Position numbers and translations under genes: made by a program. Of a stretch of 64,000 nt of DNA, positions 22,580 through 64,000 are shown one piece after another. The stretch spans positions 15,314 through 79,313 of the forward strand of contig JAQVJU010000001.1 in assembly GCA_028694995.1 (NCBI GenBank). The letters run 5' to 3'. The notes beneath the pieces were generated by a model. The model saw nothing but the letters and a program-made list of their open reading frames with translations, had not been told where the DNA came from and did no database searches. Position 1 is the first letter of the stretch; every line of letters begins with the position of its first letter. The DNA comes from Minisyncoccota bacterium. GTDB taxonomy: Bacteria; Patescibacteriota; Minisyncoccia; UBA6257.

Positions 22580-22655
22580 TGGTGGGCGTAGATGGAATTG
22601 AACCATCGGCCTCCACTTTATAAGAGTGGCGCTCTAACCACTGAGCTATACGCCC
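22580..22655 (-). tRNA. tRNA-Ile (anticodon UAU), CCA encoded; 1 nt from tRNA-Val
   Basis: Reverse complement GGGCGTA-TA-GCTCAGTGGTTAGAGC-G-CCACT-CTTATAA-AGTGG-AGGCC-GATGG-TTCAATT-CCATC-TACGCCC-ACCA. Confidence 0.8.
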
Positions 22656-30988: not shown

Positions 30989-32467
30989 TTAAATTTTTCT
31001 AAAAAATACAAGCCGATCTCCTTGCTCTATGGTTTTTGAACAGGAAACTAAAAGTCCACATTCTTCTCCTCTTTTAACTTCTGAAACTTCAATTCGATTT
31101 TTTTGTAAATTTAAGATTCTTCCTTGAGCTATTGTTTCTTCATTACGCACTAAATAAAAAGTATTTTTACCTTGAGCCTTGCCCTCAATTATCTTACCAC
31201 CAATTAATTGATTACCTTTAATGGGATTAAAAATAGCTAAAACTTCTAATTTGCCAAGGATTTCTTCTGTAGGTTTTTCTATAAATTTATGTTTTATCAA
31301 TTCTTCTGCTTTATCTTTGATTTCATAGATAATATCACCTTCAATTAAGTACAAATTATCTCTTGTTAATAATAAATTACTAATCTCAGGTTTTCTTTTA
31401 ACTCGAAAACCAATAATTAAAGCATCTTTAGAAGGAGTCAATTTAAAATCATTTTCAGATATATCACCAACTTCATTTTTAAAAAGCAAGAAAAGCCATT
31501 TATTATCTATACCAATTTGTTTTATAATTTCCTCTAAGGCTTCACCTGAGCCAACCGTATCACTTTTTATAATCAAAGGAATTTCAATTTCAGAATCTTT
31601 ATTGCCTAATTCTTTAATAATTTGACTAGATGTTTTAATAGGCTCTAATACTTCTATCTCTGTTTTTCCTGCATAGAAAGTTTCACCAACTGGGGCTAAT
31701 CCTTCAAGCCCAACCACTCTTACTGGCGCAGAAAAGGTTGCTTTTATTATAGGTTTTCCTTTAAAGTTTTCCAATATTTTTACTTTGCCTGAAATATTTC
31801 CCACTATAATTTCATCTTTTAAATGAAGAGTGCCATCAGTAATAATCAAACTAGCAGTATTGCCTCTAAAGCGGTCTAAACGAGATTCTATTACAATACC
31901 TGAGGCTGCATTATTAGGATTGGCTTTTAGTTCTTGCATTTCTGATAAAAGAATCACTAATTCTAAAAGCTCATCAACCCCTTCTCCAGTTTTTGAAGAA
32001 ACCCCAACACAAGGCACATCTCCACCACGCCCTTCTAGTAAAACACCTAATTCACTTAATTCATTTTTAACTTTTTCTAAATTAGCTGTTGGTTTGTCTA
32101 TTTTAGTCAAAGCAATAATAAAAGGAATTTCTGCATTTTTAATAATATCAAAAGATTCTTTTGTTTGTAATTTAATACCTTCTTCTGCAGCAACAACTAA
32201 AATCGCAATATCAGCAACTTTAGCTCCACGAGAACGAATCTTAAAAAAAGCTTCATGTCCTGGAGTGTCAATAAAGGTAATCTTATGTTTATCAACCTCT
32301 ATCTCATAAGCTCCTATGTGCTGAGTAATCCCTCCTGTTTCTTCATCAACAATCTTTGTCTTTTTAATATAATCTAAAAGACTAGTTTTTCCATGATCAA
32401 CATGACCTAAAACTACAATAACTGGAGGACGGGAAATTAAGCCTGGTTGTATGCCTTTGTTTTTCAT
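30989..32467 (-). CDS. infB: translation initiation factor IF-2, short form (493 aa; ORF-track start trimmed to clear the tRNA-Ser gene)
   Basis: G domain VIVVLGHVDHGKTSLLDYI, DTPGHEAF, TKIDK; C-terminal IF-2 beta-barrel domains. The long N-terminal region of canonical IF-2 is absent. Confidence 0.85.
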   Translation of the reverse strand: MKNKGIQPGLISRPPVIVVLGHVDHGKTSLLDYIKKTKIVDEETGGITQHIGAYEIEVDKHKITFIDTPGHEAFFKIRSRGAKVADIAILVVAAEEGIKLQTKESFDIIKNAEIPFIIALTKIDKPTANLEKVKNELSELGVLLEGRGGDVPCVGVSSKTGEGVDELLELVILLSEMQELKANPNNAASGIVIESRLDRFRGNTASLIITDGTLHLKDEIIVGNISGKVKILENFKGKPIIKATFSAPVRVVGLEGLAPVGETFYAGKTEIEVLEPIKTSSQIIKELGNKDSEIEIPLIIKSDTVGSGEALEEIIKQIGIDNKWLFLLFKNEVGDISENDFKLTPSKDALIIGFRVKRKPEISNLLLTRDNLYLIEGDIIYEIKDKAEELIKHKFIEKPTEEILGKLEVLAIFNPIKGNQLIGGKIIEGKAQGKNTFYLVRNEETIAQGRILNLQKNRIEVSEVKRGEECGLLVSCSKTIEQGDRLVFFRKI

Positions 32468-32482
32468 AATAAATAAAATGAG

Positions 32483-32564
32483 CGGAGGAGACAGGACTCG
32501 AACCTGCAAGCCCTTACGGGCACCAGTTTTCAAGACTGGCGCATTACCATTCTGCCACTCCTCC
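32483..32564 (-). tRNA. tRNA-Ser (anticodon UGA), type II, no CCA encoded
   Basis: Reverse complement GGAGGAG-TG-GCAGAATGGTAATGC-G-CCAGT-CTTGAAA-ACTGG- long variable arm -GCAGG-TTCGAGT-CCTGT-CTCCTCC-G. Confidence 0.8.
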
Positions 32565-32574
32565 AAAATGGTCG

Positions 32575-46033: not shown

Positions 46034-46417
46034 TTATTTACCTACTTCACTCATTTCGTTTATTGTATTGTTTCCTATTGTTAAATCAACTTCAAGAACA
46101 TTTTCAATTACTTTAGTTATTGCGCTTGCCATTAAAACTACACCAATTCCTACTAAAGCCCAAATTAAAGTCTTTTGAGCTGTTTCTATCTTTTGCTGAT
46201 TTCCAGCAGAAGTCATATATAAATAACCTGCATAAACAATGAGTATTGCACTTACTATTACAGCCAAACTCTTTAAGAAATTAATTATAGCTTCTATTAA
46301 ACTGGTAATGGTTGTAATTTCTTTAAAGGGATTTTTAAATGCAAAATCTTGCCCTAATGCTGGTAAAGCTATTAAGAAAATTGTTAATAGACTAATTATA
46401 AAAATAAGATTTTTCAT
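46034..46417 (-). CDS. small secreted helical-hairpin protein, paralog B
   Basis: Signal peptide (..ALPALGQ); core ILIVYAGYLYMTSAGNQQKIETAQKTLIWALVGIGVVLMA aligns with paralogs A and C. Confidence 0.5.
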   Translation of the reverse strand: MKNLIFIISLLTIFLIALPALGQDFAFKNPFKEITTITSLIEAIINFLKSLAVIVSAILIVYAGYLYMTSAGNQQKIETAQKTLIWALVGIGVVLMASAITKVIENVLEVDLTIGNNTINEMSEVGK

Positions 46418-46436
46418 TTTGTTAAGTTAATTAAGA

Positions 46437-47276
46437 TTAATGAATATACGAAGGGATACAATAAACAAAAGCCTTGCCTTGTGGCTGCTTTGTTGCTGTG
46501 TTTTCAAAAGTACAAGTCCAACCAGTTTTTGTACTCTCTGATTGCAAAATCTCAGTTGTAGAATCTAAGGCAAAACAAAAACCTTCTTTTAAATAATAAT
46601 AATTTGGTTCACAATAAGCTGTTCCAAAAGCCTGCTTGCAATCTGCTTCCATATAGTCATAACAATAGATTGACTCTTCTGCCCATTTACCATAGCTAGC
46701 TACATCCCAATATTTTTGCTCTATTTCAGTTTTCCTGCTTTGTATTTGTTCCTCAAGACTGGGGGTGGGAGGAAGATTGCTGTCAGAATTAGAGGAAGAA
46801 AAGCTTGGCGGTTGTGAAGATTGAGGAGGTTGTGGGGATTGTGGCTTCACCTCTTCGCATTCAATTTTCCACCAAGTGCCAGTATAATACTCTGGGTCAA
46901 GTTCTCCTGTGAAATTAATAAGAAACCAGAATATTGTATTAACAATTACCCAAGCAGCTAAAATAATTATTAGCCCCATGATAGCATTGTAAATTGTTTT
47001 TTGTCCTGTTCTGATATTCTCTTCTTTACCTGCTGAAAAAATCCAAAGAAACCCTCCATAAACTATTAAAATAACAATAATTAAGAAAGCTATTTCTATG
47101 GCAAAATACACTACATTTTGAGCTAATTGTAATAGATGACAGATATTACATTCTGGTTCTGAAGGCCCTCCACAAGGAACTAATCCAGCTGCCTGAACAA
47201 ACAAAGGAAAACAATAAAAACCAATCATTAAGAAAAAGATAATTAATTTCTGAGTTATTTTGTTTGTATTTTTCAT
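46437..47276 (-). CDS. paralog C: helical-hairpin module fused to a Pro/Gln/Ser linker and a Cys-rich C-terminal ectodomain (279 aa)
   Basis: Core ILIVYGGFLWIFSAGKEENIRTGQKTIYNAIMGLIIILAA; linker PQSPQPPQSSQPPSFSSSNSDS; C-terminal domain with about 8 Cys. Confidence 0.5.
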   Translation of the reverse strand: MKNTNKITQKLIIFFLMIGFYCFPLFVQAAGLVPCGGPSEPECNICHLLQLAQNVVYFAIEIAFLIIVILIVYGGFLWIFSAGKEENIRTGQKTIYNAIMGLIIILAAWVIVNTIFWFLINFTGELDPEYYTGTWWKIECEEVKPQSPQPPQSSQPPSFSSSNSDSNLPPTPSLEEQIQSRKTEIEQKYWDVASYGKWAEESIYCYDYMEADCKQAFGTAYCEPNYYYLKEGFCFALDSTTEILQSESTKTGWTCTFENTATKQPQGKAFVYCIPSYIH

Positions 47277-62159: not shown

Positions 62160-62191
62160 CTAACAAAATCTCTGTTTTTAAAACAGAGATT

Positions 62192-63286
62192 TTATTTTCT
62201 CTCTAGGTTCTTTTCACAATCAGGACATTTAAAGATTGAGCAAGGTGTGCCGCGCTGATGAGGAATTTTATACCCGCATTCTGGGCAAACACAATAACCG
62301 CCTGGCCCTAATCCAGTTGCCTCTTCTATCTTGTTTTTAAACCGACCGCGCCTTTGCCAGCCATAGCTGCGACCTATCATTGGCTTATAATACCCTGTTT
62401 CAAGTTCATGGCTCTGAATCTGAATCATCACATAAGTAAGATTTTTAATCTCTTCCATTAATTCTTTTCTTAATTTATCTGAAATTTCAGTTGCCTCTTG
62501 AACTTTTAAATTACTTGGTAAGTTTATCTCCAAACTAGCAGTTATAGCAGAGCCTTTCTTTTGAGTCTTTAAAGAATCAATTAGAATATTTTGTTTTGTA
62601 GCAATTTCATTTATTTTTGTTTCAATTTCTGGATCTGCTGAAACATCTAATAAAGAATCAGCTGCTTCTTTACCTAAAGAAAAAGATTCTTTAATAACAT
62701 AAATTCCAATTAAAAAAGCTAAGATTGAATCTGTGTAAATCCAATATTTTGTTAAAAACAATCCTATAAAAACCACTAAAGAAGCATAAACATCTATTCG
62801 AGAATGGACTCCATCAGACAATAGGGCGATTGAGTTTTCTTTCTTACCAAAATGAATTTTTAATCGAGCCATTATTTCATTAACTAAGGCAGAAATAATC
62901 ATAATACCAAAAGCTAAAACTGGAATCTTTATTATAGAGGGATTAACAAAACTCTGAACAGCTTCATAAATAATTCCAATCCCTGTGGCTAGAAGTATTA
63001 AGGTAATCACCATTCCAGCTAAGACCTCAAATTTATAATATCCATAAGGATGTTTTTGATCTTCTGGTTTCTTTGATATCTTAATACCAATAAATCCTAT
63101 GACTGAGGAAAAAATATCCATTAAAGAATGAATTCCTTCTGCCAAAACAGCTGTTGAACTAGAAAAGAGACCAATGCTAATTTTTGCACCAGCTAAAAAG
63201 ATATTAGATATTATAGAAACTAAAGCAATTTTTTCTTTCATTTTTTTACTTATTTTGACTATACGCCCATAACTGTCTTTTGTCAA
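62192..63286 (-). CDS. cation diffusion facilitator (CDF) family metal transporter with C-terminal Cys4 zinc-ribbon
   Basis: 6 TM CDF core (HSLMDIFSS, LSDGVHS metal-site motifs), cytoplasmic domain, then CVCPECG...CPDCEK. Confidence 0.75.
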   Translation of the reverse strand: MTKDSYGRIVKISKKMKEKIALVSIISNIFLAGAKISIGLFSSSTAVLAEGIHSLMDIFSSVIGFIGIKISKKPEDQKHPYGYYKFEVLAGMVITLILLATGIGIIYEAVQSFVNPSIIKIPVLAFGIMIISALVNEIMARLKIHFGKKENSIALLSDGVHSRIDVYASLVVFIGLFLTKYWIYTDSILAFLIGIYVIKESFSLGKEAADSLLDVSADPEIETKINEIATKQNILIDSLKTQKKGSAITASLEINLPSNLKVQEATEISDKLRKELMEEIKNLTYVMIQIQSHELETGYYKPMIGRSYGWQRRGRFKNKIEEATGLGPGGYCVCPECGYKIPHQRGTPCSIFKCPDCEKNLERK

Positions 63287-63390
63287 TTTTTAATTTAAAA
63301 TATAAAACCTGATCTCTAAGTCATAATTAAATATCTTTTATCTTTTATTGCAATAAAATAAAATTTAATAATAACTAAGATTAATTTTAT

Positions 63391-63645
63391 TTTTGGCTTA
63401 ACAAAGCTAAAACCTGCTTAAAAACCAGGTTTGCGCTTAAATAAGCCATTTCTTTGAAATTGTTTCACACTTTGTTTCACACAATGTTTCATGTGAAACA
63501 TTTTATCTCATAAATCAGGGTATTTTTCTATTTTTGGCTTAACAGAGCCAAAACCCGTCAAAATGCCGGGTTTGCGCTTAAATAAGCCATTTCTTTGAAA
63601 TTGTTTCACACTTTGTTTCACACAATGTTTCATGTGAAACATTTT
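63391..63645. repeat. two copies of a ~114-bp direct repeat (63391-63504 and 63532-63645) upstream of nusA
   Basis: Each copy: TTTTGGCTTAACA.AGC.AAAACC-hairpin-GCGCTTAAATAAGCCATTTCTTTGAAATTGTTTCACACTTTGTTTCACACAATGTTTCATGTGAAACATTTT; the hairpin arms differ by compensatory changes. Confidence 0.8.
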
Positions 63646-63929
63646 GCTTAAAATTGTAAAAAATACATGTTAATATATCTTAATAATATCTATATAATAT
63701 AAATTATTGTTTTTTATAAAAAAATGATTTTCTCTTTAAAAAACTAACTTAAGTTCTTTTGTATGATAAAACTCTATTTTAAAATTTTTCTCTGAATTGC
63801 AATCTTTGATTTTTTTAATAAAAACTATTAATGCTTAATTATAAAAGTTGACTTTTGAAAAAAAGAGAGTAGAATAAGTGTTAATGAAGAGATCGCGAAA
63901 AGCGGTCTTTCTTAATAAAAATTAAAAAA

Positions 63930-64000
63930 ATGATAGATTTAAAAACATTAAAACCATTAGTACGCCAAATAGCAGAAGAAAAAGGATTACCAGAACAAAG
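63930..64000 (+). CDS. nusA: transcription termination/antitermination factor NusA (5' partial; runs off the window)
   Basis: MIDLKTLKPLVRQIAEEKGLPEQ resembles the NusA N-terminus (..LL.AL..LEKEKGI..E). Confidence 0.45.
   Translation, partial: MIDLKTLKPLVRQIAEEKGLPEQ

Follow-up and report, generated by a model that had tools for sequence, protein, structure and literature searches.

A candidate origin-proximal centromere with parS-type sites, tandem half-sites and a conserved hairpin upstream of nusA in Parcubacteria

The chromosomal site parS, studied in Bacillus subtilis and Caulobacter, is bound by ParB (Spo0J), and its 16-bp consensus, TGTTNCACGTGAAACA, is kept from Firmicutes to Proteobacteria (reviewed in PMC7022226). 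Some ParB proteins also bind half-parS heptamers, GTTTCAC or GTTCCAC, as shown in Pseudomonas aeruginosa and observed by ChIP for some others (PMC5961200, PMC10419367; PMC7022226). For the Patescibacteria, or candidate phyla radiation (CPR), which are uncultured and ultra-small, the replication origin and chromosome segregation are essentially undescribed. Here we report the analysis of a duplicated non-coding element in a stretch of 64,000 nucleotides (64 kb, hereafter the window) from a Minisyncoccota bacterium (GenBank assembly GCA_028694995.1, contig JAQVJU010000001.1, positions 15,314 to 79,313 of the forward strand). The element sits between a gene for a cation diffusion facilitator (CDF) transporter (62192-63241, minus strand) and nusA (ATG at 63930, plus strand), and consists of two units, each made of a hairpin, two half-sites and a near-consensus parS. 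On balance, and with moderate confidence, we read it as an origin-proximal chromosomal centromere of Parcubacteria (Paceibacteria), that is, a parS-type cluster with accessory half-sites.

The element is a direct repeat (family D1) of two 120-nt units on the plus strand, at 63385-63504 and 63526-63645, which are 92% identical, start 141 nt apart and are separated by a 21-nt spacer (63505-63525). A first-pass annotation made from the letters of the window had described two 114-bp copies with a 27-nt spacer; the repeat itself was correctly recognised, while each unit begins 6 nt further 5′ and the spacer is shorter than had been given. Each unit runs from a 55-nt hairpin into the string TGTTTCAC-ACTT-TGTTTCAC-ACAA-TGTTTCATGTGAAACA (below, the box module), and the roughly ten differences between the units all fall within their first ~45 nt, the final 75 nt being identical. 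In unit 1 the two TGTTTCAC boxes occupy 63461-63468 and, 12 bp further on, 63473-63480 of the plus strand, and the 16-mer TGTTTCATGTGAAACA lies at 63485-63500; the corresponding positions in unit 2 are 63602-63609 and 63614-63621 (plus strand, from the octamer count) and 63626-63641. The 16-mer matches parS, TGTTTCACGTGAAACA, at 15 of 16 positions (consensus from PMC7022226), and its two copies are the only matches to TGTTTCACGTGAAACA with three or fewer mismatches in the window, where 0.18 would be expected. Exact TGTTTCAC octamers are similarly concentrated, six of the seven in the window falling inside the element with 1.4 expected window-wide. Per unit these comprise two direct boxes, placed head-to-tail ahead of the 16-mer, and one inverted box within it; of the three direct motifs previously counted in each copy two stand, the third being TGTTTCAT, the left half of the 16-mer. 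Nor is TGTTTCATGTGAAACA the perfect palindrome it had been taken for, since its 7-nt arms flank a non-symmetric TG and 14 of its 16 positions are symmetric. Judged by its letters, TGTTTCAC is a parS half-site, and the earlier view of the boxes as an array of protein-binding sites is probably correct. A replication- or partition-related site had been listed among several candidates, with the likeness to parS and its half-site being missed; because the palindrome is parS with one mismatch, that vague list becomes a specific assignment.

The repeat is not an assembly artefact, a possibility raised earlier, because two other assemblies (ENA ERZ27247361 and JGI 3300014206) carry the element without any sequence difference and two short-read contigs end inside the repeat. 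It had also been stated that no open reading frame (ORF) exists between the CDF gene and nusA. One does, a 44-codon minus-strand ORF (63508-63642) that overlaps unit 2 and is annotated as a gene in one assembly; it was rejected as a coding gene because in unit 1 this frame is cut short by a stop after 25 codons, and it is not conserved.

Compared with the chromosomal parS sites of studied bacteria, the locus shares the 16-bp word, at 15 of 16 positions here and at all 16 in relatives, and the clustering of several copies over a few hundred bp, at a place where skew appears to switch as at an origin. It differs in that two head-to-tail half-sites precede each full site at a fixed 12-bp spacing and are more conserved than the palindrome, in that the palindrome is degenerate in some relatives, and in that a conserved hairpin lies between the modules. 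The isolated half-sites of P. aeruginosa carry the same GTTTCAC heptamer and provide an experimental precedent for the occupancy of half-sites by ParB, although there hundreds of single heptamers are dispersed, whereas here a tandem pair is fixed to a full parS and conserved together with its spacers. Composite plasmid centromeres such as the P1 parS combine repeats of the heptamer box A, ATTTCAC, in direct and inverted orientation with a box B and an IHF bend. The likeness to P1 lies in TTTCAC-type heptamers in both orientations within ~80 bp and in an element intervening between their clusters; here, however, the locus is chromosomal, no box B equivalent was identified and a hairpin is found instead of an IHF site. 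While the type of site is textbook, the fixed half-half-full layout, the drift of the palindrome beside invariant half-sites and the interposed hairpin have not been described before.

By its NusA the organism falls among Patescibacteria/Parcubacteria, with metagenome-assembled genomes of the Paceibacteria type. Homologous loci were collected from two species representatives (L005 and L006) and by a pattern scan of metagenomes, which gave L092, L103, L107, L141, L144, L152, L168, L172, L179 and L196, with NusA identities to the window of 68-81%. The scan pattern, TGTTTCACNNNNTGTTTCACNNNNTGTT, was over-loose, at least ~11 of the 120 listed loci being true relatives and most of the others 12-mer satellites; a more specific pattern (e.g. 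TTGTTTCACACNNTGTTTCACACANTGTT) would have yielded further relatives. Comparison with related genomes, a check proposed in the first-pass annotation, revealed the same architecture upstream of nusA in at least ten of them (L005, L006/L152, L092, L103, L107, L141, L168, L172, L179 and L196). With the exception of L144, every relative has tRNA-Ala(CGC) or a divergent SufC-like gene first, followed by module A, the hairpin and module B; a yraN/UPF0102 gene on the minus strand often intervenes before nusA. When the hairpin plus module was used as an nhmmer profile, it matched only the nusA locus of this family (E = 1e-25 to 1e-41; 2e-27 for unit 1). The further copies of the unit for which a search had been suggested were found neither elsewhere in the window nor at other loci, and the unit is therefore not a dispersed repeat; a generic terminator was rejected on the same restriction of the profile to the family locus. 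Within the alignment of units, ATTGTTTCACACTTTGTTTCACACAATGTTT, which comprises the two head-to-tail half-sites with their spacers, is almost invariant, and the first box is invariant among the relatives. A perfect 16/16 parS occupies the homologous position in module B of L006 and L168 and in module A of L107; positions 6-8 of the 16-mer vary among relatives (CAT, ACC, CAC, GGT, GGC, TAC). More distant Parcubacteria (L017, L020, L023, L027, L051 and L084) carry two to six canonical parS sites clustered within 10 kb of nusA, compared with a chance expectation of ~1e-3 perfect 16-mers in 1.3 Mb of Parcubacteria sequence. The canonical parS word is thus clearly in use in this group. A phage or plasmid origin of the element was rejected: a scan of viral contigs gave unrelated tandem repeats only, and every true member of the family is a nusA locus on a chromosome, which is not the setting of a partition site or iteron array of a mobile element.

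The two hairpins, at 63394-63448 and 63535-63589 (plus strand), adopt an identical three-helix, 55-nt minimum free energy fold with two internal loops, in which an outer stem (TGGCTTA/TAAGCCA), a middle stem (AAGC/GCTT) and an inner stem enclose a 9-nt loop. The inner stem is AAACCTG/CAGGTTT (63410-63416 and 63426-63432) in the first copy and AAACCCG/CGGGTTT (63551-63557 and 63567-63573) in the second, and the loops differ at five of their nine positions. The compensatory change reported earlier is thus borne out, T63415 corresponding to C63556 and A63427 to G63568, with both arms altered and the fold kept. Whole units fold with z-scores of -4.8 and -4.5 relative to dinucleotide shuffles. When 12 hairpins from about ten lineages were aligned and scored against the three-helix fold seen in the window, 82% of cells were paired, compared with 23-48% in slid registers; double changes were present at seven pairs, in ten cells, and the observed covariation was reached by 3 of 500 shuffles. 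The outer helix, TTTGGCTTAA/TTAAGCCAAA, never covaries and is conserved as sequence. Structural selection on the hairpin, as had been proposed from the two copies, agrees with this conserved and partly covarying pattern. On the plus strand 17 G-U cells were counted versus 8 A-C cells, an excess that leans weakly towards an RNA read from that strand.

The hairpin resembles an intrinsic terminator in that it is stable, has a T-run after it on the plus strand and keeps its pairing where the stem sequence varies. A T-run of 4-6 follows it in most relatives. Seven relatives have a co-directional tRNA gene immediately 5′ of the element, which is not the case in the window, L006 or L196. It differs from such terminators in its length of 55 nt with three helices and two internal loops, in its invariant outer stem, in the interrupted T-run of the window (TTTCTTT) and in being present even where there is no co-directional upstream gene. 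No sigma-70 promoter ahead of the hairpin was consistent across the genomes scanned; in L103 the sequence GTGAAA-16-AATAAT ends ~7 nt 5′ of it. A cmscan against Rfam, which had also been suggested, gave only noise over the element (at most 20.6 bits versus gathering scores of 55-80, E ≥ 2; run at E ≤ 10) and no matches in four relatives at E ≤ 1, and a known Rfam RNA family was rejected on these grounds. With neither an Rfam match nor a consistent promoter, the earlier idea of a pair of small RNAs is neither strengthened nor removed. L144 has a single box module and no hairpin, and in L107 a plain perfect parS is followed by the hairpin and then by a module; wherever it occurs, the hairpin is thus flanked by ParB-type modules on both sides. 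Candidate roles for it are a transcriptional insulator, a small RNA or an extruded DNA structure. What a plain terminator of this genome looks like, in contrast to the 55-nt hairpin, is likely seen at 62165-62193, where a 13-bp perfect hairpin, AAAATCTCTGTTT-TTA-AAACAGAGATTTT, with A- and T-runs on its two sides lies between the convergent tRNA-Ala(CGC) and CDF genes as a probable bidirectional terminator.

The genomic position of the element was examined through strand composition and gene orientation. GC skew is negative throughout the window, and its cumulative minimum lies at the window end. When ORF skew was regressed on two variables, gene strand and module side (108 ORFs from the window and eight relatives), gene strand contributed +0.081 ± 0.008 and, independently of it, side of the module contributed +0.064 ± 0.009 to GC skew (+0.072 ± 0.012 when the window was left out). 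To the left of the module 45 genes are on the minus and 21 on the plus strand, and to its right 30 are on the plus and 12 on the minus strand, these figures being drawn from homologous, hence non-independent, loci with at most 11 kb of sequence right of the module. Skew and orientation seem to switch here in the sense that a replication origin would give. The gyrA gene is located 12 kb to the left of the element. In L017 and L023 canonical DnaA boxes (TTATCCACA and TTATACACA) are found 100-200 bp from a perfect parS, and the parS-at-origin arrangement therefore seems ancestral in Parcubacteria.

We propose that a ParB/Spo0J dimer would load on the near-consensus 16-bp parS of each unit and, by analogy with the ParB proteins that have been studied, would close as a cytidine triphosphate (CTP)-dependent clamp and slide outward, and that the two head-to-tail half-sites may hold extra ParB beside the loading site. 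On a plus-strand transcript the hairpin and its T-run would most likely act as a terminator-like insulator between the modules, which is the weakest part of the scheme. Several observations weigh against this proposal. Searches by tblastn, GERR motif and Pfam, which covered the window and 1.3 Mb of DNA flanking nusA in Parcubacteria, detected no parB, parA or Spo0J-like gene, so that the locus differs from the known chromosomal systems in showing no cognate ParB, and a literature search found no publication on ParB/parS in Patescibacteria/CPR; ParB in this lineage is therefore an assumption. The half-site pair is better conserved across relatives than the palindrome, whose right arm is altered to TGTTTACCGTGTCACA (four mismatches) in L005, L092, L144 and L172 and in module B of L141, a drift that is odd if function needs symmetric dimer binding. 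Moreover, a ParB dimer is symmetric and cannot recognise a direct repeat in the way that it does a palindrome, and direct repeats at 12 bp fit better with monomeric head-to-tail binders such as DnaA. Clusters of canonical DnaA boxes are missing from the window and the family loci, the neighbourhood of the skew switch included. As for the hairpin, a consensus terminator scan left it uncalled in the window, L005 and L103 and called only a sub-hairpin in L006, and a terminator role is disfavoured by the broken T-run of the window and by the fact that L006 and L196, whose upstream gene is divergent rather than co-directional, have the most stable hairpins (-35 kcal/mol, T6 tail).

These points leave some room, small though we judge it to be, for a reading in which the half-site pair and the hairpin, rather than a palindromic ParB loading site, are the conserved core and form a lineage-specific organiser of origin and centromere. 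Either ParB would nucleate on direct half-sites with a relaxed need for the palindrome, as genomes of the L005 type suggest, or the locus would be a hybrid origin at which a DnaA initiator uses parS-like boxes; in both forms the hairpin, as RNA or as extruded DNA, would be a working part, and it may be linked to the neighbouring yraN, the companion of parS in most Parcubacteria loci. A separate reading, which we consider improbable, is that the TGTTTCACA boxes are simply the DnaA boxes of the lineage and the element its oriC core, DnaA monomers on 9-mers at 12-bp spacing opening the AT-rich tract beyond. Like the DnaA-box arrays of oriC, the element offers asymmetric 9-mers ending in CACA, arranged head-to-tail at about one helical turn beside AT-rich DNA at a switch of skew and gene orientation, the invariant part is a direct-repeat pair, and no canonical DnaA-box cluster competes with it in the window or the family loci. 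The only exceptions, a tandem TAATCCACT-CT-TTATCCACA just 5′ of module A in L196 and TTATCCCCA in L006, lie in the same orientation as the module, and GC falls to 5-17% at 63641-63760, after module 2. The boxes depart at position 2 only from the relaxed consensus TTWTNCACA reportedly given by Schaper and Messer; position 2 (T), however, is a stringent DnaA contact, and TGTTTCACA has G there. It has three mismatches to TTATCCACA, in line with the first-pass statement that the boxes are not canonical DnaA boxes, and no match to TTATNCACA with one or fewer mismatches occurs within 1.5 kb of the element. The third box lies within the parS palindrome, which it forms with the inverted arm (15-16 of 16 positions), and two DnaA boxes would overlap there head-to-head. 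The surrounding intergenic DNA is all AT-rich, relatives with yraN have only ~40 nt of such DNA after module B, and no dnaA gene is present in the window or related loci except for one partial DnaA in L039. Parcubacteria relatives have canonical TTATCCACA boxes beside separate perfect parS sites, and a Parcubacteria DnaA keeps the canonical domain IV recognition helix GGRDHSTVIHA; the TGTTTCAC boxes are therefore better regarded as ParB-type than as DnaA-type.

A similarly improbable reading, if anything a little more so, takes the boxes as operators of another DNA-binding protein, such as a transcription factor for the divergent promoters of nusA and its neighbour, with a convergent likeness to parS. 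The location between divergent promoters, the conservation of the spacers alongside the boxes (which suggests a longer recognition sequence) and the lack of ParB in the searched sequence would suit it, but identity to a bacteria-wide 16-bp consensus, perfect in several relatives, makes convergence very unlikely. The element also persists as its upstream neighbour changes between a tRNA gene, a SufC-like gene and the CDF gene, lies 285 nt from the nusA start and is in most relatives separated from nusA by yraN. We also doubt, slightly more strongly, that the unit as a whole is an RNA, a structured transcript of ~60-120 nt made of the hairpin and a box hairpin and acting as a small RNA or a terminator stack downstream of a tRNA gene. 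Both parts do fold well (z = -4.5 to -5.5), the hairpin covaries with a plus-strand G-U bias, the hairpin, and in several genomes also the box palindrome, has a T-run behind it, and the upstream tRNA genes and the promoter-like sequence of L103 are placed as such a transcript would need; yet neither an Rfam family nor a consistent promoter was found, the boxes are invariant rather than covarying, with right-arm changes left uncompensated in L092 and L172, and L144 keeps one box module without a hairpin. Least probable is a recent neutral tandem duplication without a function of its own. The identity of the terminal 75 nt and the presence of one hairpin in relatives and two in the window are what it would predict, but two box modules with a hairpin between them are ancestral to the group, the differences between copies are concentrated in the loop and compensatory in the stem, and ten or more related genomes keep the unit at this locus despite NusA identities at which neutral intergenic DNA should be randomised. 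As a full explanation neutral duplication is already contradicted, and it survives for the extra hairpin copy only, which may still be recent.

The history of the two-unit state can be read from the same comparison. Relatives have one hairpin between the modules and an extra 27 nt from hairpin to module B. The window has a hairpin before each module, lacks these 27 nt, shows 75 identical nt in its two units and carries a CDF gene where relatives have an adjacent tRNA gene, four differences suggesting that the hairpin and its module were recently duplicated, or copied by gene conversion, in this lineage. The two-unit state would accordingly derive from the order module A, hairpin, module B, with unit 2 corresponding to the hairpin and module B of relatives and the inter-unit spacer resembling their linker from module A to the hairpin (..AGGGT..TTTTGGC). 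The differences that survive between the copies either affect the hairpin loop or preserve pairing in the stem.

Should the element be the centromere that we favour, the locus offers a conserved sequence landmark for the origin and centromere region of one Parcubacteria clade, one that helps in closing genomes, in orienting metagenome-assembled genomes and in estimating growth rates from metagenomic coverage anchored at the origin. The grammar of the array could in addition inform how ParB uses half-sites. If ParB were absent from the lineage, the data would point to a different protein having taken over the parS word.

The DNA flanking the element contains further features. Between module 2 and the nusA promoter lies a very AT-rich non-coding tract (63646-63847; 5-25% GC per 40 nt, no ORF), which counts as a candidate unwinding region only under the oriC reading. 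It is followed, within the upstream stretch of nusA (63848-63913, plus strand), by a promoter-like TTGACT-16-TAGAAT (63848-63875) and by a leader hairpin, GATCGC-GAAAA-GCGGTC with a T-run (63890-63913). The leader is conserved in L005 and L006, where GATCGC-N5-GCGGTC and TTTCTT are kept just before the nusA start (L005:9950-9985, L006:9965-10000); it resembles a leader terminator or attenuator, and autoregulation by NusA is conceivable. The nusA product has NusA_N, S1 and KH domains, as read in the extended contig L002. On the other side, a divergent promoter-like TTGACA-17-TATAGT (63258-63286, minus strand) precedes the CDF gene, whose product matches Pfam Cation_efflux and ZT_dimer and whose start is most likely the ATG at 63241. 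A decayed yraN gene in 63650-63930 was considered and withdrawn, as tblastn gave only fragments at E ≥ 0.5.

Among relatives, yraN/UPF0102 encodes a predicted Holliday-junction-resolvase-like nuclease, and in 7 of 10 yraN-bearing loci (L006, L017, L023, L051, L070, L077 and L084) a parS-like site with two or fewer mismatches lies 24-125 nt from it; the window has no yraN. Between yraN and nusA of L005 (9780-9925) two inverted copies of ~18 nt, GGTTGACCCCGTTAGAGAT and ATCTCTAACGGGGTTGAC, which are absent from the window, flank a GC-rich hairpin. The tRNA-Ala(CGC) gene upstream of the module is split in its anticodon loop by an insertion of ~125 nt in L005 (8930-9135) and L092 (~890-1100). Inside the insertion is another complete tRNA-Ala(CGC), with ACCCCCACACCA/TGGTGTGGGGG as an inverted repeat on its two sides; the outer gene is unbroken in L103, L141, L172 and L179, and ARAGORN calls only the inner tRNA. 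The arrangement may represent a tRNA that is nested or mobile, or else an intron of an unusual type. Several unrelated contigs recovered by the metagenome scan (L130:785-930, L136:418-1090, L156:13354-13476 and L120:601-700) carry long 12-nt satellite arrays in which the same word recurs, e.g. ACTTTGTTTCAC repeated tens of times; L130, L136 and L156 are marine contigs, and the arrays, probably from marine eukaryotes or other organisms, are unrelated to the Parcubacteria locus.

Elsewhere in the window, infB (IF-2; 30989-32566) lies on the opposite strand 31 kb from nusA, so that the usual nusA-infB operon is broken, nusA being followed by tig in this lineage. The window contains 20 tRNA genes, among them a tRNA-Ile at 22580-22655 with the anticodon UAU instead of the usual lysidine-modified CAU type. 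Two adjoining genes at 46034-47276 (minus strand) carry T4SS_pilin/TrbC-VirB2 pilin domains and lie beside a gene for a solute-binding protein. Finally, the C-terminus of the CDF transporter (62192-62340) bears an extra tail of ~50 residues with two CxxC pairs, GYCVCPECGYKIPHQRGTPCSIFKCPDCEKNLERK, outside the Cation_efflux and ZT_dimer matches, which appears to be a zinc-ribbon-like extension.

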